Origin: Escherichia coli
GTDB lineage: Bacteria; Pseudomonadota; Gammaproteobacteria; Enterobacterales; Enterobacteriaceae
NCBI RefSeq assembly: GCF_003334815.1
Contig: NZ_QOWO01000008.1
Direction: 5' to 3' (one strand)
DNA: 64,000 nucleotides
Numbering within the stretch: the first letter of the stretch is position 1; each line of letters begins with the position of its first letter. Below, one piece after another: positions 1 to 45,595 of the stretch. The notes beneath the pieces were generated by a model. It had not been told where the DNA came from. It saw only the letters and a program-made list of their open reading frames with translations, and searched no databases. The position numbers and the translations under genes are program-made.

Positions 1-75
1 GTTATCGTGAGAGTAATTCATCGGCACGTTAAATCATATCAGGCGTAATACCACAACCCTTAAGTTAGCGCTTAT
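1..75 (-). mobile_element. insL: IS186 terminal region (partial, continues beyond left edge): terminal inverted repeat plus start of transposase gene (ATG at 21 reading leftward, MNYSHDN...)
   Basis: Minus-strand reading of 1-75 gives CATAAGCGCTAACTTAAGGGTTG... followed by ATG AAT TAC TCT CAC GAT AAC, which I recall as the IS186 end and InsL N-terminus; junction abuts GGGGGTTTACCCC (77-89), the G-run/C-run target IS186 prefers. From memory, no search run. Confidence 0.6.
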
Positions 76-198
76 GGGGTAAACCCCCGGGCGCGTTCCT
101 TTATCAAGATGACGTTCGAATATTCCGGCAGGTGCAGTTTGTTTATTCCAGAAAGGCGTTGAGCGCGTATGAATATAATTCTGTGGGATTTGAAGCAT
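76..198 (-). pseudogene. yeaR: yeaR 5' fragment (codons 1-41 of DUF1971 protein) interrupted by IS186
   Basis: Minus-strand ORF from ATG at 198 translates MLQIPQNYIHTRSTPFWNKQTAPAGIFERHLDKGTRPGVYP, matching recalled YeaR N-terminus, then diverges into IS-derived sequence and stops at 34-36 (54 aa total vs about 119 aa expected). Confidence 0.5.
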
Positions 199-261
199 CC
201 TTTTCCCTCCTTCGGTGAATGCGCTGAAAACGGTTTATTCCAGCCGTTTCAGGGTACGCCT

Positions 262-288
262 GATAATTTGCATTTTAAATACCATTTA
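262..288 (-). promoter_or_regulatory. Candidate NsrR operator in yeaR promoter (AATTTGCATTTTAAATACCATTT, imperfect inverted repeat)
   Basis: Resembles the AAGATGCATTT-N-AAATACATCTT type NsrR box; lies about 65-90 nt upstream of the yeaR ATG. yeaR-yoaG is a known NsrR/NarL target. Confidence 0.3.
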
Positions 289-370
289 TTGGTTACTTTT
301 TAGCACCATATCAGTGAAGAATCAGGGAGGATTATAGATGGGAAGCCCGCGACAACGCGGGCTGAAAGCA

Positions 371-1078
<708 letters not shown>

Positions 1079-1135
1079 TTAGAAAGGAGAAAATCAGGTT
1101 TTAACCTGATATCAACCCGATAATTGAATCATTAA

Positions 1136-2059
1136 TCAGGCATGCTCCAGTGAAAAATTCGGGTAGTGCTCGGCAAAATACTGGCGTAAAAATTCTACCG
1201 TTATCCGCACTTTCGCTGACGTCGCCAGCCTTGAAACATAAACGGCCCAGACGTTCGCTGGCTGGTAATATTCCGGTAGCACTTGCACTAAATGACCACT
1301 GGCAATGTTTTCGCTAACATCCCACCAGGAACGCAGAGCAATCCCCTGCCCATCGAGACACCACTGATGGACAATTTCTCCATGATTAGACGACAGTGGG
1401 CCGGTGACTTTAATCGCATGGGGGCCTTCTTTATTGCGTAATTGCCAGACACCAAAAGGATGATCGCGCTCTTTAATGACCAGGCACGGCAATGCAGAAA
1501 GATCGGTTAAATGTTTCGGCGCGCCATGTTGCGCAATAAATTCCGGCGACGCGCAGAGAATACGGTAATTGGTCGCCAGTTTGCGGGCGATTAAATTAGG
1601 GGCGATGTCATCGCCAATGCGAATATCGAGATCGACACCTTCATTGACCAAATCGACCAGTCGGTCTTCCACATCAAAACGTAATTCCAGTTGCGGATAC
1701 GCCTTCGCCAGCGCTGATAACGCCGGAGCCACCACCTGTCGTCCAAAACCAAAGCTGCTGATAATACGCAGCATCCCCTGCGGCACCTGACGCACGTCAG
1801 AAAGTTCGTCCATCATCTGACCGACATCCTGCAAAATCCGCTGCGCCCATTCATAAATCCGCTCTCCTTCTTCGGTAATGGTGACGCGGCGGGTGGTGCG
1901 GTGTAACAACACCACGTTTAGCGTTTGCTCCAGCAAGGCGATGCGCTTGCTGACGAACGCCGGTGAAACGCCCAGTTCTTCCGCCACGGCGGCAAAACCA
2001 GCCCGGCGAGCCACCAGCATAAAGACGCGCAAATCATTCAGCAGCGGTAAATTATTCAT
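1136..2059 (-). CDS. dmlR: LysR-type transcriptional regulator of dmlA
   Basis: ORF 1136-2080; internal ATG at 2059 gives 307 aa (MNNLPLLNDLRVF...), HTH LysR N-terminus, divergent from dmlA. Confidence 0.88.
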   Translation of the reverse strand: MNNLPLLNDLRVFMLVARRAGFAAVAEELGVSPAFVSKRIALLEQTLNVVLLHRTTRRVTITEEGERIYEWAQRILQDVGQMMDELSDVRQVPQGMLRIISSFGFGRQVVAPALSALAKAYPQLELRFDVEDRLVDLVNEGVDLDIRIGDDIAPNLIARKLATNYRILCASPEFIAQHGAPKHLTDLSALPCLVIKERDHPFGVWQLRNKEGPHAIKVTGPLSSNHGEIVHQWCLDGQGIALRSWWDVSENIASGHLVQVLPEYYQPANVWAVYVSRLATSAKVRITVEFLRQYFAEHYPNFSLEHA

Positions 2060-2161
2060 GATTCGTGTTTTATGTTTCACCAGTTACGGGGATTAATTCC
2101 TTTTCAGTCAATTATAGGATGGTGATGTTGTCAATTTTGATGGTCAGGAAGTGAGAACCCA

Positions 2162-3247
2162 ATGATGAAAACGATGCGTATTGCTGCGATCCCGGGAGAC
2201 GGGATTGGCAAAGAAGTCCTTCCTGAAGGGATTCGCGTGTTACAGGCTGCCGCTGAGCGCTGGGGCTTCGCCTTGAGTTTTGAGCAAATGGAGTGGGCGA
2301 GCTGCGAGTATTACAGCCATCACGGTAAAATGATGCCGGACGACTGGCATGAGCAACTTAGCCGTTTCGACGCCATCTATTTTGGTGCCGTCGGCTGGCC
2401 GGATACCGTTCCGGACCATATTTCGTTGTGGGGTTCGCTGCTGAAATTTCGTCGTGAATTCGACCAGTACGTCAACCTGCGCCCGGTTCGTCTCTTTCCT
2501 GGCGTTCCCTGCCCGCTGGCGGGAAAACAGCCTGGCGACATCGATTTTTACGTGGTCAGGGAAAACACCGAAGGCGAATATTCCTCGCTCGGCGGTAGAG
2601 TGAATGAAGGTACAGAGCATGAAGTCGTCATTCAGGAATCGGTATTTACCCGCCGTGGTGTCGATCGCATTTTGCGTTATGCCTTCGAACTTGCGCAAAG
2701 CCGTCCACGTAAGACACTAACTTCTGCCACTAAATCGAACGGTTTAGCCATCAGCATGCCGTACTGGGATGAGCGAGTGGAAGCAATGGCCGAGAATTAC
2801 CCGGAGATCCGCTGGGACAAGCAGCATATTGATATTCTCTGCGCGCGTTTTGTGATGCAGCCGGAACGATTCGATGTGGTGGTGGCGTCCAATTTGTTTG
2901 GCGATATCCTTTCCGATCTTGGCCCGGCCTGCACCGGCACCATTGGCATTGCCCCATCCGCCAACCTGAATCCGGAACGCACTTTCCCGTCGCTCTTCGA
3001 GCCTGTCCACGGTTCCGCGCCGGATATCTACGGGAAAAATATTGCTAACCCTATCGCCACGATTTGGGCCGGGGCAATGATGCTCGATTTTCTCGGCAAT
3101 GGCGATGAGCGTTTCCAGCAAGCGCATAACGGTATTCTGGCAGCAATTGAAGAAGTGATTGCTCACGGGCCGAAAACACCTGATATGAAAGGCAATGCCA
3201 CCACGCCACAGGTTGCCGACGCGATTTGCAAAATTATTTTGCGTTAA
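2162..3247 (+). CDS. dmlA: D-malate / 3-isopropylmalate-type dehydrogenase (decarboxylating)
   Basis: 361 aa, isocitrate/isopropylmalate dehydrogenase family motifs; K-12 YeaU length. Confidence 0.92.
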   Translation: MMKTMRIAAIPGDGIGKEVLPEGIRVLQAAAERWGFALSFEQMEWASCEYYSHHGKMMPDDWHEQLSRFDAIYFGAVGWPDTVPDHISLWGSLLKFRREFDQYVNLRPVRLFPGVPCPLAGKQPGDIDFYVVRENTEGEYSSLGGRVNEGTEHEVVIQESVFTRRGVDRILRYAFELAQSRPRKTLTSATKSNGLAISMPYWDERVEAMAENYPEIRWDKQHIDILCARFVMQPERFDVVVASNLFGDILSDLGPACTGTIGIAPSANLNPERTFPSLFEPVHGSAPDIYGKNIANPIATIWAGAMMLDFLGNGDERFQQAHNGILAAIEEVIAHGPKTPDMKGNATTPQVADAICKIILR

Positions 3248-3267
3248 GGTCAAACCAGTTTATTTGA

Positions 3268-3293
3268 ACCGCGTCACTGACGCGGTTTTTTTA
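3268..3293 (+). terminator. Intrinsic terminator after dmlA
   Basis: Hairpin AACCGCGTCACTGACGCGGTT followed by T7 run. Confidence 0.6.
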
Positions 3294-3437
3294 TTCGTTC
3301 TTTGCAGTAAATAACCTGCGTCATTTCACCTTTTATTGTTTCCGTTTCGTGTTTTATGGCTTTCCGTATTCTTAATTGTTTAATTTATGTAACATGCAAA
3401 TTTTGTTACGCGTACGTTAGGTTCCGCCGTACAGGTA

Positions 3438-4883
3438 TTGGTTTTGCTGGCAATGGGACTGGTGATTTATTTAGCCACCAGTAAATACGGCAATATTCGT
3501 CTTGGCGAAGGAAAACCGGAATACAGCACGCTCTCCTGGCTGTTTATGTTTATTTGTGCCGGTTTAGGTTCTTCTACGCTTTATTGGGGGGTTGCTGAAT
3601 GGGCCTATTATTATCAAACACCTGGATTAAATATCGCACCGCGTTCACAACAGGCACTCGAATTTAGCGTTCCCTACTCTTTCTTCCACTGGGGCATCAG
3701 CGCCTGGGCAACTTATACGCTGGCCTCATTAATCATGGCTTATCACTTTCATGTGCGGAAAAACAAAGGTCTGAGCCTTTCCGGCATTATTGCTGCTATT
3801 ACCGGCGTTCGCCCGCAAGGCCCATGGGGAAAACTGGTCGATTTGATGTTCCTGATCGCCACTGTCGGCGCACTGACCATTTCCCTTGTTGTTACCGCAG
3901 CAACCTTTACCCGTGGGCTTTCCGCGCTGACCGGTTTACCCGATAACTTCACCGTGCAGGCATTTGTGATCCTGCTTTCCGGCGGCATTTTTTGCCTAAG
4001 CTCGTGGATTGGTATCAACAACGGTTTGCAACGTCTGAGCAAAATGGTTGGCTGGGGCGCGTTCCTGCTGCCATTACTGGTGCTGATTGTCGGCCCAACC
4101 GAATTTATTACCAACAGCATCATCAATGCCATCGGCCTGACCACGCAAAACTTCCTGCAAATGAGCTTATTCACCGATCCGCTTGGCGATGGTTCATTTA
4201 CCCGCAACTGGACCGTTTTCTACTGGCTGTGGTGGATCTCATACACCCCTGGCGTAGCAATGTTTGTCACCCGCGTTTCCCGCGGTCGTAAGATTAAAGA
4301 AGTTATCTGGGGACTGATCCTCGGCAGCACCGTCGGTTGCTGGTTCTTCTTTGGCGTAATGGAAAGCTATGCCATTCATCAGTTTATCAATGGCGTAATC
4401 AACGTCCCACAGGTGCTGGAAACACTGGGCGGCGAAACAGCTGTACAGCAAGTTCTGATGTCGTTGCCAGCCGGTAAATTGTTCCTCGCCGCATACCTGG
4501 GCGTGATGATTATTTTCCTTGCCTCGCATATGGATGCAGTGGCCTACACCATGGCGGCGACCAGTACGCGTAATCTCCAGGAAGGTGACGATCCTGACCG
4601 TGGGCTGCGTCTTTTCTGGTGCGTGGTGATCACTCTGATCCCGCTTTCCATCTTGTTTACCGGTGCTTCGCTGGAAACGATGAAAACCACCGTCGTGCTC
4701 ACAGCCCTTCCCTTCCTCGTCATTTTACTGGTGAAAGTCGGCGGGTTTATTCGCTGGCTGAAACAGGATTACGCCGACATTCCGGCTCATCAAGTTGAAC
4801 ATTATCTCCCGCAGACACCGGTTGAAGCCCTGGAAAAAACGCCAGTGCTCCCTGCGGGAACCGTATTCAAAGGCGACAACTGA
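3438..4883 (+). CDS. yeaV: BCCT-family transporter (carnitine/betaine-type)
   Basis: 481 aa polytopic membrane protein with BCCT signature region; precedes yeaW-yeaX. Confidence 0.88.
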
Positions 4884-4914
4884 GCGCCATCATCCTAACG
4901 ATAAAGGTATCCCT

Positions 4915-6039
4915 ATGAGCAATCTGAGCCCTGACTTTGTACTACCCGAAAATTTTTGCGCTAACCCGCAAGAGGCGTGGACCATTCCTGCCCGTTTTTA
5001 TACCGATCAGAACGCGTTTGAACACGAAAAAGAGAACGTCTTCGCCAAAAGCTGGATTTGCGTCGCTCACAGCAGCGAACTGGCGAATGCCAATGATTAT
5101 GTGACGCGTGAGATCATTGGCGAAAGCATCGTGCTGGTACGCGGTCGTGATAAGGTTTTGCGCGCGTTCTATAACGTGTGTCCGCACCGTGGTCATCAGT
5201 TGTTGAGCGGTGAAGGAAAAGCAAAAAATGTGATTACCTGCCCGTATCACGCATGGGCATTCAAACTCGATGGCAACCTGGCCCATGCACGTAACTGCGA
5301 AAACGTCGCCAATTTCGATAGCGACAAAGCGCAACTGGTTCCGGTGCGTCTGGAAGAATATGCCGGATTCGTCTTCATCAACATGGACCCCAACGCCACC
5401 AGCGTAGAAGATCAATTACCCGGCCTGGGCGCGAAAGTGCTGGAAGCCTGCCCGGAAGTCCACGATCTGAAACTGGCGGCCCGCTTTACCACCCGCACGC
5501 CTGCCAACTGGAAGAACATTGTCGATAACTATCTCGAGTGCTATCACTGTGGTCCGGCGCATCCAGGTTTCTCCGACTCCGTACAGGTTGATCGTTACTG
5601 GCACACCATGCACGGTAACTGGACGCTGCAATACGGTTTCGCCAAACCGTCCGAACAGTCGTTTAAATTTGAAGAGGGTACGGATGCGGCATTCCACGGT
5701 TTCTGGCTGTGGCCGTGCACGATGCTGAACGTCACCCCGATCAAAGGGATGATGACGGTCATTTATGAATTCCCGGTGGATTCTGAAACTACCCTGCAAA
5801 ACTACGATATTTACTTCACCAATGAAGAGTTAACCGACGAGCAAAAATCGCTGATTGAGTGGTATCGCGATGTGTTCCGTCCGGAAGATTTACGTCTGGT
5901 TGAAAGCGTACAGAAAGGGCTGAAATCGCGTGGCTATCGTGGTCAGGGGCGCATCATGGCCGACAGTAGCGGTAGTGGCATTTCCGAACATGGTATCGCC
6001 CATTTCCATAATCTGCTGGCGCAGGTGTTTAAGGACTAA
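4915..6039 (+). CDS. yeaW: Rieske (2Fe-2S) oxygenase subunit, carnitine monooxygenase CntA-like
   Basis: ORF-track start 4795 is an extension; ATG at 4915 (MSNLSPDFVLPENF...) gives 374 aa; Rieske motif CPHRGHQL...CPYHAW present. Confidence 0.88.
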   Translation: MSNLSPDFVLPENFCANPQEAWTIPARFYTDQNAFEHEKENVFAKSWICVAHSSELANANDYVTREIIGESIVLVRGRDKVLRAFYNVCPHRGHQLLSGEGKAKNVITCPYHAWAFKLDGNLAHARNCENVANFDSDKAQLVPVRLEEYAGFVFINMDPNATSVEDQLPGLGAKVLEACPEVHDLKLAARFTTRTPANWKNIVDNYLECYHCGPAHPGFSDSVQVDRYWHTMHGNWTLQYGFAKPSEQSFKFEEGTDAAFHGFWLWPCTMLNVTPIKGMMTVIYEFPVDSETTLQNYDIYFTNEELTDEQKSLIEWYRDVFRPEDLRLVESVQKGLKSRGYRGQGRIMADSSGSGISEHGIAHFHNLLAQVFKD

Positions 6040-6094
6040 TGACATCGGCGGCGGTATTTTCCGCCGCTGGGCTGATTTTTGATGGAGTACAGCA

Positions 6095-7060
6095 ATGTCA
6101 GACTATCAAATGTTTGAAGTACAGGTGAGCCAGGTTGAACCCCTTACCGAACAGGTGAAACGCTTCACGCTGGTGGCAACCGATGGCAAACCATTACCTG
6201 CGTTTACCGGAGGAAGTCACGTCATTGTGCAGATGAGCGATGGTGATAACCAGTACAGCAATGCGTATTCACTACTGAGTTCGCCGCATGACACCTCTTG
6301 TTATCAGATTGCCGTTCGGCTGGAGGAAAACTCGCGCGGCGGTTCCCGCTTTTTGCATCAGCAGGTAAAAGTGGGCGATCGGTTAACGATTTCAACGCCT
6401 AATAACCTGTTTGCGCTAATTCCCTCAGCCAGAAAGCATCTGTTTATCGCGGGCGGTATTGGTATCACCCCTTTCCTGTCGCACATGGCAGAGCTGCAAC
6501 ACAGCGACGTCGACTGGCAGCTACATTACTGCTCGCGAAATCCAGAAAGTTGCGCATTTCGTGATGAGCTAGTCCAGCATCCGCAGGCTGAGAAAGTCCA
6601 TTTGCATCATTCATCAACCGGAACACGACTGGAATTAGCGCGATTATTGGCGGATATCGAACCTGGCACACACGTTTATACCTGTGGCCCCGAGGCGCTA
6701 ATTGAAGCGGTAAGAAGTGAAGCTGCGCGTCTGGACATCGCCGCCGATACGCTGCACTTTGAGCAATTTGCTATCGAAGACAAAACCGGCGATGCATTTA
6801 CCCTGGTGCTTGCCCGTTCCGGAAAAGAGTTTGTGGTGCCGGAAGAGATGACTATTTTGCAGGTTATTGAAAATAATAAAGCCGCGAAAGTGGAATGTTT
6901 ATGTCGTGAAGGGGTATGCGGAACCTGCGAAACAGCAATACTGGAAGGTGAAGCTGACCATCGGGATCAATATTTTAGCGATGAAGAGCGTGCCAGCCAG
7001 CAAAGTATGTTGATCTGTTGTTCGCGTGCGAAGGGTAAACGCCTGGTGTTGGATTTGTAG
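6095..7060 (+). CDS. yeaX: Ferredoxin-NAD(P) reductase subunit with C-terminal 2Fe-2S ferredoxin domain, CntB-like
   Basis: 321 aa; FMN/FAD reductase fold plus C-terminal CxxxxCxxC...C ferredoxin motif (CREGVCGTCE). Confidence 0.88.
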   Translation: MSDYQMFEVQVSQVEPLTEQVKRFTLVATDGKPLPAFTGGSHVIVQMSDGDNQYSNAYSLLSSPHDTSCYQIAVRLEENSRGGSRFLHQQVKVGDRLTISTPNNLFALIPSARKHLFIAGGIGITPFLSHMAELQHSDVDWQLHYCSRNPESCAFRDELVQHPQAEKVHLHHSSTGTRLELARLLADIEPGTHVYTCGPEALIEAVRSEAARLDIAADTLHFEQFAIEDKTGDAFTLVLARSGKEFVVPEEMTILQVIENNKAAKVECLCREGVCGTCETAILEGEADHRDQYFSDEERASQQSMLICCSRAKGKRLVLDL

Positions 7061-7063
7061 TTT

Positions 7064-7108
7064 GCCGAAGCCGGATGTGGCGCTGAGCGCGCCCAGTCCG
7101 GCTTCGGA
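7064..7108. repeat. REP-like palindromic element between yeaX and rnd
   Basis: GCCGAAGCCGGATGTGGCGC...CCAGTCCGGCTTCGG imperfect palindrome resembling REP consensus. Confidence 0.4.
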
Positions 7109-7113
7109 AGATT

Positions 7114-8241
7114 TTACTGCGGATATTCCTGCAATAAATTGTGTAATGCTTCCGCCATCAGCTCACCACGCCAGCCGGAAATCAGCTCCGGCAAATTGTT
7201 CTGCGGTTTCAGTTTCCATTGCCAGTTCAGCAGTTGGTTGATTTGCCGACGCGATGCCAGCAATTCGGCGCTGATCTTATGCGTTTCGCTCACGTCAGTA
7301 ATCAGCGACTTAATCGCTTTAAACGCTTTACGATAACCCGGCATGTCCATCAGGTTAAGCATCGGCTGCGGTAAGGCATCTTCCGGCAATGTCTGCGCTT
7401 TTTCCACCAGCGCTAGCAGCGTTTTACCGTGAAAGCGGATTTCGCTACCGGATAAACCCAGGCTGTCCAGTTCGCCTAAACTTCCCGGCATATAACGCGC
7501 TACCGACCACAAATGCTCTTCACGCACGACAAAGTTCACCGCCAGATCGCGCTCTCGCGCCTTGCGCAGTCGCCAGTCGGCTAACAGTTGCAGACAGGCC
7601 AGTTGGCGTGTGCGTAATTGCCAGGCATTGGTGATATCACGCCAGGCATCTTCCGGCGCAACGACTTCCTGACGACGCATTTGCATCAGGCGGCATTCAT
7701 CCAGCGCCGCAGGTAGCCAGCCGGAGGCCTCCGTTTCTACCATAAGCTTGGCGGTGATCGGTAACAGATACCAGACATCCGCCGCTGCGTATTCACACTG
7801 ACGTTCGGTCAGCGGTCTGGCCAGCCAGTCGGTGCGCGATTCACTCTTGTCCAGCGTAACGCCGGAATACTCTTCCACCATGGAAGCGAAACCCCATGAC
7901 ATCGGGCGTCCGCAGAAGGCAGCAAGGATTTGCGTGTCAATCAAGGGTTGTGGTAATTCGCCAAAGACATTGAGGAACACTTCCAGATCTTCACTGCCTG
8001 CATGGAGAAATTTTGTGATGGACGGATCGCGCAGGATCGCTTTCAGCGGTGACCAGTCGGTGATCCCGAGTGGATCGATTAGCGCCAGATGCTCGCCATC
8101 GAAAAGTTGAATCAACCCCAGCTGCGGGTAATAAGTGCGCGTACGAACAAATTCAGTATCCAGGGCTATCGCCGGAAAGGCACGGACGGCTTCACACAAA
8201 GAAGCCAGCGCATCGTCCGTGGTAATCATTTGGTAATTCAA
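7114..8241 (-). CDS. rnd: Ribonuclease D
   Basis: 375 aa, 3'-5' exonuclease (DEDDy) plus HRDC domains; K-12 length. Confidence 0.93.
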   Translation of the reverse strand: MNYQMITTDDALASLCEAVRAFPAIALDTEFVRTRTYYPQLGLIQLFDGEHLALIDPLGITDWSPLKAILRDPSITKFLHAGSEDLEVFLNVFGELPQPLIDTQILAAFCGRPMSWGFASMVEEYSGVTLDKSESRTDWLARPLTERQCEYAAADVWYLLPITAKLMVETEASGWLPAALDECRLMQMRRQEVVAPEDAWRDITNAWQLRTRQLACLQLLADWRLRKARERDLAVNFVVREEHLWSVARYMPGSLGELDSLGLSGSEIRFHGKTLLALVEKAQTLPEDALPQPMLNLMDMPGYRKAFKAIKSLITDVSETHKISAELLASRRQINQLLNWQWKLKPQNNLPELISGWRGELMAEALHNLLQEYPQ

Positions 8242-8244
8242 ATT

Positions 8245-8335
8245 GTTTTCTCTTTAGTGGGCGTCAAAAAAAACGCCGGATTAACCGGCGTCTGGCGTCT
8301 GACGACTGACTTAACGCTCAGGCTTTATTGTCCAC
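8245..8335 (-). ncRNA. sroD: Candidate SroD small RNA (fadD 3' region / rnd upstream)
   Basis: Recalled from the literature as lying between rnd and fadD; exact ends not verifiable here. Overlaps the fadD terminator hairpin. Confidence 0.25.
8266..8290 (-). terminator. Intrinsic terminator downstream of fadD
   Basis: Palindrome CGCCGGATTAACCGGCG with a U8 run on the minus strand (A8 at 8264-8271 on plus). Confidence 0.55.
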
Positions 8336-10003
8336 TTTGCCGCGCGCTTCGTCACGTAATTCTCGTCGCAAAATTTTTCCGACGTTAGATTTCGGTAACT
8401 CATCACGAAACTCCACCAGCTTCGGTACTTTGTATCCCGTGAGCTGACGGCGGCAAAAAGTCACCAGTGACTCTTCGGTAAGCGATGGATCTTTTTTCAC
8501 TACGAAGATTTTCACCGCTTCACCACTGGAGCCGGAAGGTACGCCAACAGCCGCGACTTCCTGTACGCCAGGATGCTGCATGACGACATCTTCAATCTCG
8601 TTGGGATAGACGTTAAAACCGGAAACCAGAATCATGTCTTTTTTACGATCGACAATGCGCAGGAATCCTTCTTCATCCATTACCGCGATGTCGCCGGTGT
8701 GTAACCAGCCATTTTTGATGATTTCATCGGTAGCATCGGGACGCTGCCAGTAACCCAGCATCACCTGCGGTCCTTTGACACAAAGCTCACCCGGTTGACC
8801 TGGTGGTACTTCATTATCATCATCATCCACCAGTTTGGCTTCCGTCGACGGCACCGGCAAACCGATGCTACCACTATGATAATCAATATCATATGGGTTA
8901 ACGCTGACCAGCGGCGCACACTCGGTAAGGCCATAGCCTTCCAGCAGATACTGTCCGGTCAGTTTCACCCAACGCTCTGCCACCACTTGCTGCACTGGCA
9001 TCCCACCGCCTGCGGAAAGATGCAGACTGGAGAAATCCAGCTGCTGGAACTCTTTATTGTTCAGCAACGCATTGAACAAGGTGTTAACGCCCGTGATAGC
9101 GGTAAACGGATATTTCGCTAACTCTTTTACCAACCCTGGAATATCGCGCGGGTTAGTGATAAGCAGGTTCTGCCCACCCAGTTCGATAAACAGCAGGCAG
9201 TTAATGGTCAGGGCAAAAATGTGATACAGCGGCAGCGCCGTCACCACCAGCTCTTTGCCCGGATGCAACAGCGGACCATAGGTCGCGTTAACCTGTTCCA
9301 GGTTCGCCAGCATATTGCGGTGAGTCAGCATCGCGCCTTTCGCCACACCAGTGGTGCCGCCGGTGTATTGCAGAAAAGCTAAATCTTCCGGCACCAGTTC
9401 GGGTTTGACGTACTGCATCCGGTAGCCGTTATGCAGTGCGCTACGAAATGAAATGGCATCTGGCAGATGGTATTTCGGCACCAAACGCTTGATGTATTTA
9501 ACAACGAAATTGACTACCGTGCCTTTTGCCGTAGATAGCTGATCGCCCATACGGGTCAGAATTACGTGCTGAACGGCGGTTTTATCAACCACTTTTTCCA
9601 GTGTGTGAGCAAAGTTAGACACGATAACAATCGCCGATGCGCCGCTATCGTTAAGCTGATGCTCAAGCTCACGCGGGGTATACAACGGGTTAACGTTTAC
9701 GACGATCATCCCGGCACGCAAAATGCCAAACAGCGCCACCGGATATTGCAATAAATTAGGCATCATCAACGCAACGCGATCGCCTTTCTTCAGCCCCAAC
9801 CCTTGTTGCAAATAAGCGGCAAACGCGCGACTGCGTTCTTCCAGCTTGCGGAAGGTCATTACCTCCCCCATATTCACAAACGCAGGTTGATCGGCGTAGC
9901 GCGCGACCGACTGCTCAAACATATCTACCAGAGATTGATAACGGTCAGGGTTGATCTCCGTCGGAACGTCCGCGGGATAACGGTTAAGCCAAACCTTCTT
10001 CAA
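8318..10003 (-). CDS. fadD: Long-chain fatty acid-CoA ligase
   Basis: AMP-binding enzyme; 561 aa from TTG at 10003 ([10 protein letters not shown]...), ORF-track 583 aa form is an upstream extension. Confidence 0.9.
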
Positions 10004-43975: not shown

Positions 43976-44848
43976 TCAAAAAGGTTCGAGAGTCGCAAGC
44001 AGGCTGATGATCACCAGCACTACCGCACCTATCGCCCATTCGAGTTTAGTCATCCACACAAACCAGGGTGCCGCACGATCTTCATCCTGCCTCATGCGCG
44101 GTACAAGAACATAACGATTAGCCAGCGCAATGACCACCATAATCATCACCAGGATGGCTTTGAGCAATAAGAGTTGGCCCCAGTAAGTCGTAAGCGTGGG
44201 GGGAAATCCGGTAATCAACAATGCATTAAGCACGCCGCTTGCCAGTACGCCGATCACCGCAAAATGCCCGCACCAGGAAAAACGCATCAGCGCCTGAATA
44301 GCCTGGTGTCGCCAACGGCCTTTGATGAGTTGCATACACCAGAGCACCGGCAGTAATCCCCCAAACCACGCCGCCGCACAAATCAGGTGAATCGCGTGAT
44401 TAGTCTGATGGATTTTCGCTGTTACCCCTTCATTCAGCGTCGCATGCCCCACTCCCGCCAGCAGAATAAATTGCGCGGTAGTGAGCATAAACAGCAAACG
44501 TGGCATATTCCGCGGTTGCATAAGGGCGACGATCAACGTTACGAGGGCGAGAACAATTTGCCATAACCAGATGCCACCAAACTGCGTTTGCAAAACAGCC
44601 TGCCAAATGTTTGGCGAAAATACATCTGTCCATCCCGTTCCCATCAACCCGCCCTGAACGGCGAGCATTGCAGTGGCACTGATCAAACTCCAGACGGCAG
44701 CGTGCTGTTGTAAACGCAGAAAACGCTTCGCCAGCAAGCGACGAATCGTCAAGGGGGCCAGCCAGGCACCGTACATTGCGAAGCCAAAAACCAGCATCAG
44801 CGAGGTGAAATGGATAAATCGCAGCGCGATCCAGGTAAACGCCAGCAT
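43976..44848 (-). CDS. yebZ: CopD-family inner membrane protein
   Basis: 290 aa, 8-TM CopD-like copper resistance family. Confidence 0.88.
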   Translation of the reverse strand: MLAFTWIALRFIHFTSLMLVFGFAMYGAWLAPLTIRRLLAKRFLRLQQHAAVWSLISATAMLAVQGGLMGTGWTDVFSPNIWQAVLQTQFGGIWLWQIVLALVTLIVALMQPRNMPRLLFMLTTAQFILLAGVGHATLNEGVTAKIHQTNHAIHLICAAAWFGGLLPVLWCMQLIKGRWRHQAIQALMRFSWCGHFAVIGVLASGVLNALLITGFPPTLTTYWGQLLLLKAILVMIMVVIALANRYVLVPRMRQDEDRAAPWFVWMTKLEWAIGAVVLVIISLLATLEPF

Positions 44849-44851
44849 GAT

Positions 44852-45226
44852 TTATTTCACGCTAAAGGTGTAGTGTCCTTTCGTTTTATGCCCGTCCACC
44901 GAAACAACATGCCAGTCAACGGTGTAGGTTCCGGGTTTCAGCGAATCGGCCAGTGGAACAATCAGTTGCTTTTGGTCCTGCTCATTTCGCTTCGCCGGTA
45001 ATGTTTTAATATTTTCGTTTTTTGGCCCCGTGATTTTTGCACCACTGAATCCTGTTTCAACACCTTCCGAGAAGTTTAAAGTGATTGCCTGCGGTGCAGC
45101 TGTCACTTGCGCGTTTGCCGCAGGATACTGATGCGTTAAATGCGCATGTGCCCAGACGGAAGGTGTCACCAACGAAGTGGTCAGGATTGCCAGCGCGTAG
45201 CGAAGGGAGCGTGCAGTTGAAGCCAT
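44852..45226 (-). CDS. yobA: CopC-family periplasmic copper-binding protein
   Basis: 124 aa, signal peptide followed by the N-terminal His (HAHL) typical of CopC. Confidence 0.88.
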   Translation of the reverse strand: MASTARSLRYALAILTTSLVTPSVWAHAHLTHQYPAANAQVTAAPQAITLNFSEGVETGFSGAKITGPKNENIKTLPAKRNEQDQKQLIVPLADSLKPGTYTVDWHVVSVDGHKTKGHYTFSVK

Positions 45227-45364
45227 ATTATCTATTCCTTTTTGTAATAACTTTTTTACAGAGCATAACCTTGTCTAATGTCTGAGTCGAGGATCATCAA
45301 TTCCGGCTTGCCATCCTGGCTCACTCTTAGTAACTTTTGCCCGCGAATGATGAGGAGATTAAGA

Positions 45365-45595
45365 ATGCTGAAGAATCTGGCTAAACTGGATCAAACAGAA
45401 ATGGATAAAGTGAATGTCGATTTGGCGGCGGCCGGGGTGGCATTTAAAGAACGCTACAATATGCCGGTGATCGCTGAAGCGGTTGAACGTGAACAGCCTG
45501 AACATTTGCGCAGCTGGTTTCGCGAGCGGCTTATTGCCCACCGTTTGGCTTCGGTCAATCTGTCACGTTTACCTTACGAGCCCAAACTTAAATAA
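45365..45595 (+). CDS. holE: DNA polymerase III theta subunit
   Basis: 76 aa from ATG 45365 ([20 protein letters not shown]...). Confidence 0.9.

Follow-up and report, generated by a model that had tools for sequence, protein, structure and literature searches.

In a 64,000-nucleotide stretch of Escherichia coli DNA (the window), a five-gene locus comprising dmlR, dmlA, yeaV, yeaW and yeaX occupies positions 1136 to 7060, flanked by leuE (371-1009, minus strand) and rnd (7114-8241, minus strand), as placed by a listing of open reading frames (ORFs) that covered window positions 1-10000. The first gene, dmlR (yeaT; 1136-2059, minus strand), encodes a LysR-type regulator in an ORF that reaches back to a GTG at 2080, and is divergent from dmlA (yeaU; 2162-3247, plus strand), whose 361-residue product is a D-malate/tartrate/3-isopropylmalate dehydrogenase (decarboxylating). 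Further along the plus strand lie a remnant of yeaV (3402-4883), a gene for a carnitine-type transporter of the BCCT family that here has no 5' end, and two intact genes, yeaW (cntA; 4915-6039, 374 residues, its ATG lying within a longer ORF at 4795-6039) and yeaX (cntB; 6095-7060, 321 residues), which are predicted to encode the oxygenase and reductase of a carnitine monooxygenase.

The stretch was found by megablast in nearly all of 5426 complete E. coli genomes. It is 99.9% identical to K-12 MG1655 across 10.2 kb, with a gene spacing that agrees with the MG1655 annotation, and strain ECCHD184, whose annotation names the genes dmlR, dmlA, yeaV, yeaW and yeaX, matches the region at 100% identity. 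These identities, together with the ORF listing, confirm the original prediction for this DNA where it placed dmlR-dmlA beside a BCCT gene and yeaW-yeaX. The module itself, its annotation and its pathway are already known. With good confidence, we regard the locus as the K-12-type allele of the E. coli carnitine catabolic cluster; that confidence attaches to the anatomy, and the physiological consequence is graded lower.

A 225-bp deletion at the 5' end of yeaV

Direct alignment of the window with O157:H7 and SE11 revealed a clean deletion, with 225 bp missing between positions 3400 and 3401 and one T of ambiguity (microhomology) in the placement of the junction against O157. Genomes such as O157:H7 match the query as two pieces, over a span 225 bp longer than that of the window. 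The missing segment holds about 96 bp of leader, including an AGGAG Shine-Dalgarno sequence, as well as the ATG and codons 1-43 of yeaV, which in O157 is annotated at 536 residues (the YeaV of the intact allele is WP_000987525.1). In the window, the yeaV frame is shut upstream by a TAA at 3390-3392, and the first usable start is a TTG at 3438 (codon 56), 5' of which there is only a poorly spaced AGG. The longest ORF (3438-4883, plus strand) thus begins at this TTG, specifies 481 residues and equals the K-12 coding sequence (CDS) b1801.

The protein models tell the same story. NF007412, an NCBIfam equivalog of 536 positions, is covered from 1 to 536 by the O157 protein and from 56 to 536 by that of the window, whose score of 968.8 bits clears the cutoff of 647. 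The deleted part encodes the first transmembrane helix (TM1, residues ~10-32, with KKK ahead of it) and the beginning of TM2, while the hydrophobic segments after TM2 are all retained and the BCCT signature of TM8 (W-x2-FYW-x-WW) is kept as WTVFYWLWW. The window yeaV falls short of the full 12 helices and has lost its own start codon and ribosome-binding site, and the NCBI pipeline PGAP annotates the yeaV genes of ECCHD184 and BL21(DE3) as pseudogenes 'missing N-terminus'. The solved BCCT structures (DddT, CaiT and BetP) align to full-length YeaV from residue 16 on, and the YeaV orthologs of Klebsiella, Acinetobacter and Psychrobacter are 535-568 residues long with homologous N-termini. Because the solved homologs and the orthologs of other genera share the N-terminus that was lost, the long form is the ancestral one, and yeaV in the window is a 5'-truncated, pseudogene-like remnant. 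The original prediction had described all genes here as intact; this was wrong, since the 225-bp deletion truncates yeaV and thereby leaves the module incomplete, and PGAP calls a pseudogene in the identical sequence.

The deletion also bears on the regulatory sequence around yeaV. In a three-way alignment, a non-coding block of about 85 bp upstream of the gene (3313-3395, plus strand) has hardly changed between E. coli and Klebsiella, in a spacer that otherwise cannot be aligned; it is probably a regulatory region and a candidate promoter/operator of yeaVWX. The window retains this block; what has gone is the leader that follows it, likewise conserved, together with the ribosome-binding site. 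In the intact leader, two copies of a direct repeat, TAACATGCAAATAAT and TACCCTGCAAATAAT, stand 44 bp apart (O157 extract 3755-3769 and 3799-3813). The first corresponds to window positions ~3388-3401, and the deletion begins at the end of this first copy and removes the second. We do not claim the repeat as a paired operator, the second copy being poorly conserved in Klebsiella. A hairpin 3' of dmlA (3266-3295, plus strand; a 10-bp stem with 6 GC pairs, followed by TTTTATT) resembles an intrinsic terminator, is present in O157 too, and is predicted to separate the transcription of dmlA from that of yeaV. The dmlR-dmlA intergenic region (2060-2161) presumably serves as promoter/operator for the two divergent genes, judging from a LysR layout that is conserved in Acinetobacter, Klebsiella and Psychrobacter.

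Other regulatory candidates came to nothing. The appearance of yeaV in a genomic SELEX list (PMC3105977) prompted a consensus scan for CRP sites, which returned 32 matches against 31.7 expected and is uninformative. No riboswitch or small RNA (sRNA) was found within 1136-7060 in an Rfam search of window positions 1-9000 (E <= 1). The one genuine hit of that search, the sRNA sroD (RF00370, 105 bits), lies at 8267-8359 on the minus strand, between rnd and fadD and outside the five-gene locus.

Oxygenase, reductase and the missing dehydrogenase

YeaW matches the carnitine monooxygenase CntA of Acinetobacter baumannii (PDB 6Y8J) over its full length, with 72.8% identity (E = 9e-197), and contains the Pfam domains Rieske (E = 1.6e-23) and Ring_hydroxyl_A. 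With residue roles in CntA taken from PMC7948474 and PMC5433236, the motifs CPHRGH and CPYHAW make up the Rieske site, whose [2Fe-2S] ligands C89, H91, C109 and H112 correspond to CntA C86, H88, C106 and H109; the mononuclear iron triad H211, H216 and D325 corresponds to H208, H213 and D323, and the bridging glutamate E208 to E205, a CntA signature. The carnitine pocket (Y206, Y228, N272, Y297, F260, Y317 and F321) is in every position as in CntA, where the equivalents are Tyr203 (pi-cation), Tyr225, Asn270, Tyr295, Phe258, Tyr315 and Phe319, and the cysteine pair C209 and C212 matches Cys206/Cys209. In all, 19 of the 19 functional residues compared are identical in the alignment. The gene has its own Shine-Dalgarno-like AAGG about 8 nt 5' of the ATG. 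By these features, YeaW is a group V Rieske oxygenase and the oxygenase subunit of carnitine monooxygenase.

For its part, YeaX contains the domains FAD_binding_6, NAD_binding_1 and a C-terminal Fer2, the plant-type [2Fe-2S] motif C270-x4-C275-x2-C278-x29-C308 and the sequence GGIGITP, and its alignment with phthalate dioxygenase reductase (2PIA; E = 2e-56) runs over the entire length, which classes it as a phthalate-dioxygenase-reductase-type (class IA) reductase of the CntB kind. Both genes are intact, and every residue that the CntB/CntA mechanism calls for is present. The original prediction had proposed a Rieske oxygenase with a reductase ending in a plant-type ferredoxin, which the Pfam domains and cysteine motifs bear out, and had read the pair as a CntAB-type module that converts carnitine or gamma-butyrobetaine to trimethylamine, which holds, given the identity to CntA and the identical residues. 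The alignment to CntA that it named as a check has been run, and no Rieske or mononuclear iron ligand is lost. Biochemistry is in line with this assignment: the identical YeaX and YeaW proteins, purified after cloning from the DH10B strain, cleave carnitine in vitro, and the enzyme also takes gamma-butyrobetaine and, weakly, glycine betaine and choline (PMC9508527).

On the mechanism proposed, NAD(P)H would reduce the flavin and the plant-type [2Fe-2S] cluster of YeaX. Electrons would move on to the Rieske cluster of YeaW (C89, H91, C109, H112) and, by way of the bridging Glu208, would reach the mononuclear iron in the adjacent subunit (H211, H216, D325), the site at which O2 would be activated. 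Carnitine, held by Tyr206 and an aromatic and polar pocket, would be hydroxylated there at C4, the hydroxylated product collapsing to trimethylamine and malic semialdehyde. The pathway continues, in the published account, with the stereospecific oxidation of malic semialdehyde to D-malate and the decarboxylation of D-malate to pyruvate by a DmlA-type enzyme, and thus runs from L-carnitine through malic semialdehyde and D-malate to pyruvate (PMC11353897). In complete clusters, as the literature describes them, a dedicated dehydrogenase makes the D-malate and a DmlA-type enzyme converts it to pyruvate and CO2, under LysR control.

It is this dedicated dehydrogenase that E. coli lacks at the locus. 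In four genera, Acinetobacter, Klebsiella, Psychrobacter and Burkholderia, the malic semialdehyde dehydrogenase gene (msadh) lies between cntA and cntB. The 55-bp yeaW-yeaX spacer of the window holds no msadh gene, no homolog was found anywhere in the 64-kb window by tblastn with the Klebsiella msadh, and the gene is absent from this spacer in all four E. coli strains examined there. The E. coli spacer aligns to the one between msadh and yeaX in Klebsiella, and E. coli has lost msadh from between yeaW and yeaX. Set against a complete carnitine-to-pyruvate cluster of the A. baumannii type, the window is without msadh. This absence in E. coli has been noted before, with GabD (62% identical to MSA-DH) named as a possible substitute (PMC11353897). 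Where the other genera carry msadh, the window has a GC-rich hairpin (6045-6070, plus strand; 10 pairs, 8 of them GC) followed by GCTGATTTTT, and a related GC-rich element occurs in the Klebsiella msadh-yeaX spacer. The hairpin could attenuate yeaX expression or could be a scar of msadh loss.

The absence of msadh invites a different reading, in which the E. coli cluster is not catabolic at all and instead trims intracellular carnitine or gamma-butyrobetaine pools, or acts on some other quaternary amine, so that msadh is dispensable. Pool trimming, in the sense of compatible-solute homeostasis, has been proposed for clusters without msadh and/or mdh (PMC11353897), and the loss in four of four strains fits, as does the acceptance in vitro of gamma-butyrobetaine and, weakly, of glycine betaine and choline (PMC9508527). 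Expression data add to this, yeaV and yeaW being up by about 2 (units as printed) at the growth transition into stationary phase in a microarray study of O157 Sakai (PMC2241611). On the other hand, E. coli still has the mdh gene (dmlA) next door, an argument that some flux goes to D-malate, and the carnitine-pocket residues are all unchanged. We consider this alternative unlikely, although it survives better than the others weighed below.

Three alleles in E. coli and the state of the locus

The frequency of the deletion was determined in a census set of 5426 complete E. coli genomes. A junction probe of 50 bp laid over the deletion point, unable to seed a match in the intact allele, detected the junction in 1441 genomes, including K-12, RR1, ATCC 8739 and ETEC H10407. 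BL21(DE3) carries the deletion allele too, and the truncation was confirmed in both K-12 MG1655 and BL21(DE3). The intact allele, seen for instance in SE11 and O157, was counted through the 225 bp that the deletion removes, which 2930 genomes possess. At least 80% of the locus is found in 4367 genomes, and the difference, 4367 - 2930 = 1437, agrees with the direct count of 1441. In the remainder, about 1057 genomes, nearly the whole dmlR-yeaX cluster is lost and only fragments are left. E. coli is thus polymorphic at this locus, with 54% of genomes intact, 27% bearing the 5' deletion and 19% having lost the cluster. Strain p11A illustrates the last group: what it retains between leuE and rnd (extract 6001-6420) is 168 bp from the 3' end of dmlR, two pieces of dmlA, one of 173 bp from its interior (92% identity) and one of 37 bp around its stop codon, and the final 24 bp of yeaX. 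Small, diverged fragments of this kind indicate that the cluster was lost secondarily and decayed.

Elsewhere in these genomes, the yeaR/yoaG neighbourhood is a target of insertion sequences. In BL21(DE3), yeaR is split by IS421 (extract 44270-45382), and in SE11 an IS200/IS605 tnpA remnant and a tnpB gene adjoin yoaG (extract 584-2225).

Carnitine physiology has been studied in laboratory strains, among them some that bear the deletion. Carnitine does not support growth of E. coli K12, B or BL21, BL21 extract shows no carnitine monooxygenase activity, and no public expression data set contains substantial cntA transcription (PMC11353897). The commensal SE11, whose yeaV is intact, is named in later papers as the strain behind the original CntA work (PMC6200775). 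A table in that review lists K12 DSM 10517 as a producer of trimethylamine from carnitine; in the source cited there (PMC5433236) the strain served only as a DNA standard for quantitative PCR, and we set the entry aside. A whole-word search for yeaV, within the literature library available for searching, found no paper that mentions the truncation, and PMC11353897 is silent on it. We propose, tentatively and as one possibility, that the 225-bp deletion in yeaV may explain the missing carnitine monooxygenase expression and activity of laboratory strains and their failure to grow on carnitine.

The most likely state of the locus in the genome of the window is that of an enzyme-competent but cryptic remnant. 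On this interpretation, the cluster would be poorly expressed, any activity on carnitine would need other importers (ProP, ProU or CaiT) and an unlinked aldehyde dehydrogenase, for which GabD has been suggested (PMC11353897), and dmlR-dmlA would go on serving D-malate utilization.

Several observations weigh against that interpretation. The remaining 481 codons of yeaV are open and differ from O157 by 20 synonymous and 0 non-synonymous changes, such that the retained codons give no signal of decay. This absence may only reflect a recent deletion, strains with the deletion allele being near-identical (99.9-100% among K-12, ECCHD184 and the window). K-12 curators keep the 481-residue ORF as CDS b1801. 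In an untargeted metabolomics study of Keio and ASKA strains, overexpression or deletion of K-12 yeaV changed uptake, and carnitine was depleted upon overexpression (PMC10971958), a faint hint that the short YeaV may keep some activity. Finally, the conserved block at 3313-3395 is kept, and yeaW-yeaX may still be transcribed; a sigma-70 consensus scan of the dmlA-yeaV spacer turned up no candidate promoter, whether in the window or in the intact allele of O157. The effect of the yeaV deletion on expression is one that we infer.

These same points could be assembled into the view that the module is fully intact and working, with the 481-residue YeaV translated from TTG 3438 as a functional 11-helix BCCT transporter. 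Its open frame without non-synonymous change, the WTVFYWLWW signature and complete set of hydrophobic segments after TM2, the K-12 annotation and the phenotypes of the Keio and ASKA strains (PMC10971958) would all be accommodated, and a short hydrophobic N-terminus followed by K/R could conceivably insert with its N-terminus outside. We judge this quite improbable. TM1 and the start of TM2 are gone, yet no solved BCCT homolog in the alignment lacks them, nor do the orthologs of Klebsiella, Acinetobacter and Psychrobacter; the TTG lacks a well-spaced Shine-Dalgarno sequence, model coverage is confined to 56-536, and PGAP calls a pseudogene. Moreover, K12, B and BL21 fail to grow on carnitine and BL21 extract is inactive (PMC11353897), and the low diversity of the deletion allele means that the missing decay may just point to a recent event.

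The cluster is textbook-level in the field of carnitine, trimethylamine and cardiovascular risk, and nothing here is conceptually new; the mildly new and testable point is the K-12/BL21 allele as a reason for negative laboratory results. The published negative carnitine results for K-12 and BL21 were obtained with strains that have the truncated allele, and yeaV of K-12 (b1801, 481 residues) is truncated, yet has been annotated, knocked out and overexpressed as a normal orphan transporter. Studies that use K-12 yeaV, or K-12 and BL21 as negative controls, treat the locus as intact (PMC10971958, PMC11353897). The polymorphism matters wherever trimethylamine production is deduced from the presence of cntA/yeaW. 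If the deletion does silence the cluster, the real producers of trimethylamine from carnitine would be the strains whose allele is intact, such as SE11 and O157 (54% of E. coli), and counts of cntA/yeaW in microbiome studies would over-estimate trimethylamine capacity unless the 5' allele of yeaV is typed.

The cluster among its relatives

Synteny ties dmlR-dmlA to the same pathway. Annotated neighbourhoods from four other genera were obtained by tblastn of YeaW against a plasmid collection; the collection includes several records of 3.6-5.4 Mb that are evidently mislabelled chromosomes, a trap for plasmid statistics. In A. baumannii the order is LysR, then tartrate dehydrogenase - BCCT - hydrolase - cntA - SSADH-like dehydrogenase - reductase, and K. 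pneumoniae and the Psychrobacter plasmid pP32BP2 have the same order minus the hydrolase. Burkholderia multivorans has cntA - dehydrogenase - reductase, and a gene for tartrate dehydrogenase lies at a distance of about 3.8 kb. The E. coli locus likewise unites a divergent LysR gene with mdh, bcct, cntA and cntB, the bcct gene being truncated in the window.

Identities between E. coli and A. baumannii are 46.5, 71.9, 54.9, 74.0 and 52.4% for DmlR, DmlA, YeaV, YeaW and YeaX, respectively, and reproduce the values published for the same five pairs, 45/72/56/72/52% (PMC11353897). DmlA, which scores 565 bits against the tartrate dehydrogenase model TIGR02089 (cutoff 470.4), shows its 71.9% identity to the mdh of the A. 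baumannii carnitine operon and is 90.3% identical to the Klebsiella gene. DmlR matches LysR-family NCBIfam models, the best being TtdR, under its cutoff; its 46.5% identity is to CarR, the LysR gene in the same position, of which DmlR, divergent from dmlA, is the ortholog. Since this synteny recurs and D-malate lies on the carnitine pathway (PMC11353897), the adjacency is functional and ancestral: dmlR-dmlA supplies the carnitine pathway, in its ancestral form, with a conserved regulator and its final enzyme. The original prediction had the pair merely 'beside' the module; its position was right, and its reading as a mere neighbour understated a relation that is syntenic in Acinetobacter, Klebsiella and Psychrobacter.

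That dmlR-dmlA and yeaVWX are unrelated chance neighbours, with dmlRA devoted only to D-malate/tartrate use and to backing up the leucine pathway, would fit the strong terminator between dmlA and yeaV and the description of E. coli DmlA as a generalist for D-malate, L-tartrate and related substrates (PMC11353897), but is very hard to believe given the recurrence of a LysR gene and D-malate/tartrate dehydrogenase - BCCT - cntA in A. baumannii, K. pneumoniae and the Psychrobacter plasmid, the Burkholderia tartrate dehydrogenase gene ~3.8 kb from cntA, protein identities of 46/72/55/74/52% over five E. coli-Acinetobacter pairs, and the status of D-malate as an obligatory product of carnitine cleavage plus MSA-DH (PMC11353897).

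Taken as part of the ancestral carnitine pathway, the locus can be set beside four known systems. With phthalate dioxygenase reductase (PDB 2PIA) and the class IA reductases, YeaX has in common the order of flavin, NAD and plant-type [2Fe-2S] domains; unlike the 2PIA system, its partner oxygenase lacks a beta subunit and takes a quaternary amine, not an aromatic ring, as substrate. The A. baumannii cluster, carR followed by mdh-bcct(aci01347)-hyd-cntA-msadh-cntB, agrees with E. coli in the order and orientation of the shared genes, whereas E. coli has neither hyd nor msadh and the bcct of the window is also 5'-truncated. A terminator and a spacer of 190-250 bp follow dmlA in E. coli, while the A. 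baumannii mdh is tightly operonic, and the E. coli regulator answers D-malate according to the literature, whereas CarR answers carnitine (PMC11353897).

The Klebsiella pneumoniae cluster is the closest relative examined. It keeps msadh between yeaW and a PDR/VanB reductase, its BCCT gene is full length (535 residues), and its upstream non-coding block and yeaV leader with ribosome-binding site are conserved with the intact E. coli allele. DmlR, DmlA, YeaV and YeaW are 88-91% identical to their E. coli counterparts, compared with only 70.7% for YeaX, which diverges faster than its neighbours; between the window and O157, the non-synonymous share of differing codons is 6 of 23 in yeaX, 0 of 20 in yeaV and 0 of 8 in yeaW. 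The remaining system is the intact E. coli allele of SE11 and O157:H7, which occupies the same place between leuE and rnd and has an identical YeaW protein (WP_000067822.1 in SE11 and in a K-12-type strain alike), and which differs from the window in possessing the 225 bp of leader, Shine-Dalgarno sequence, ATG and TM1.

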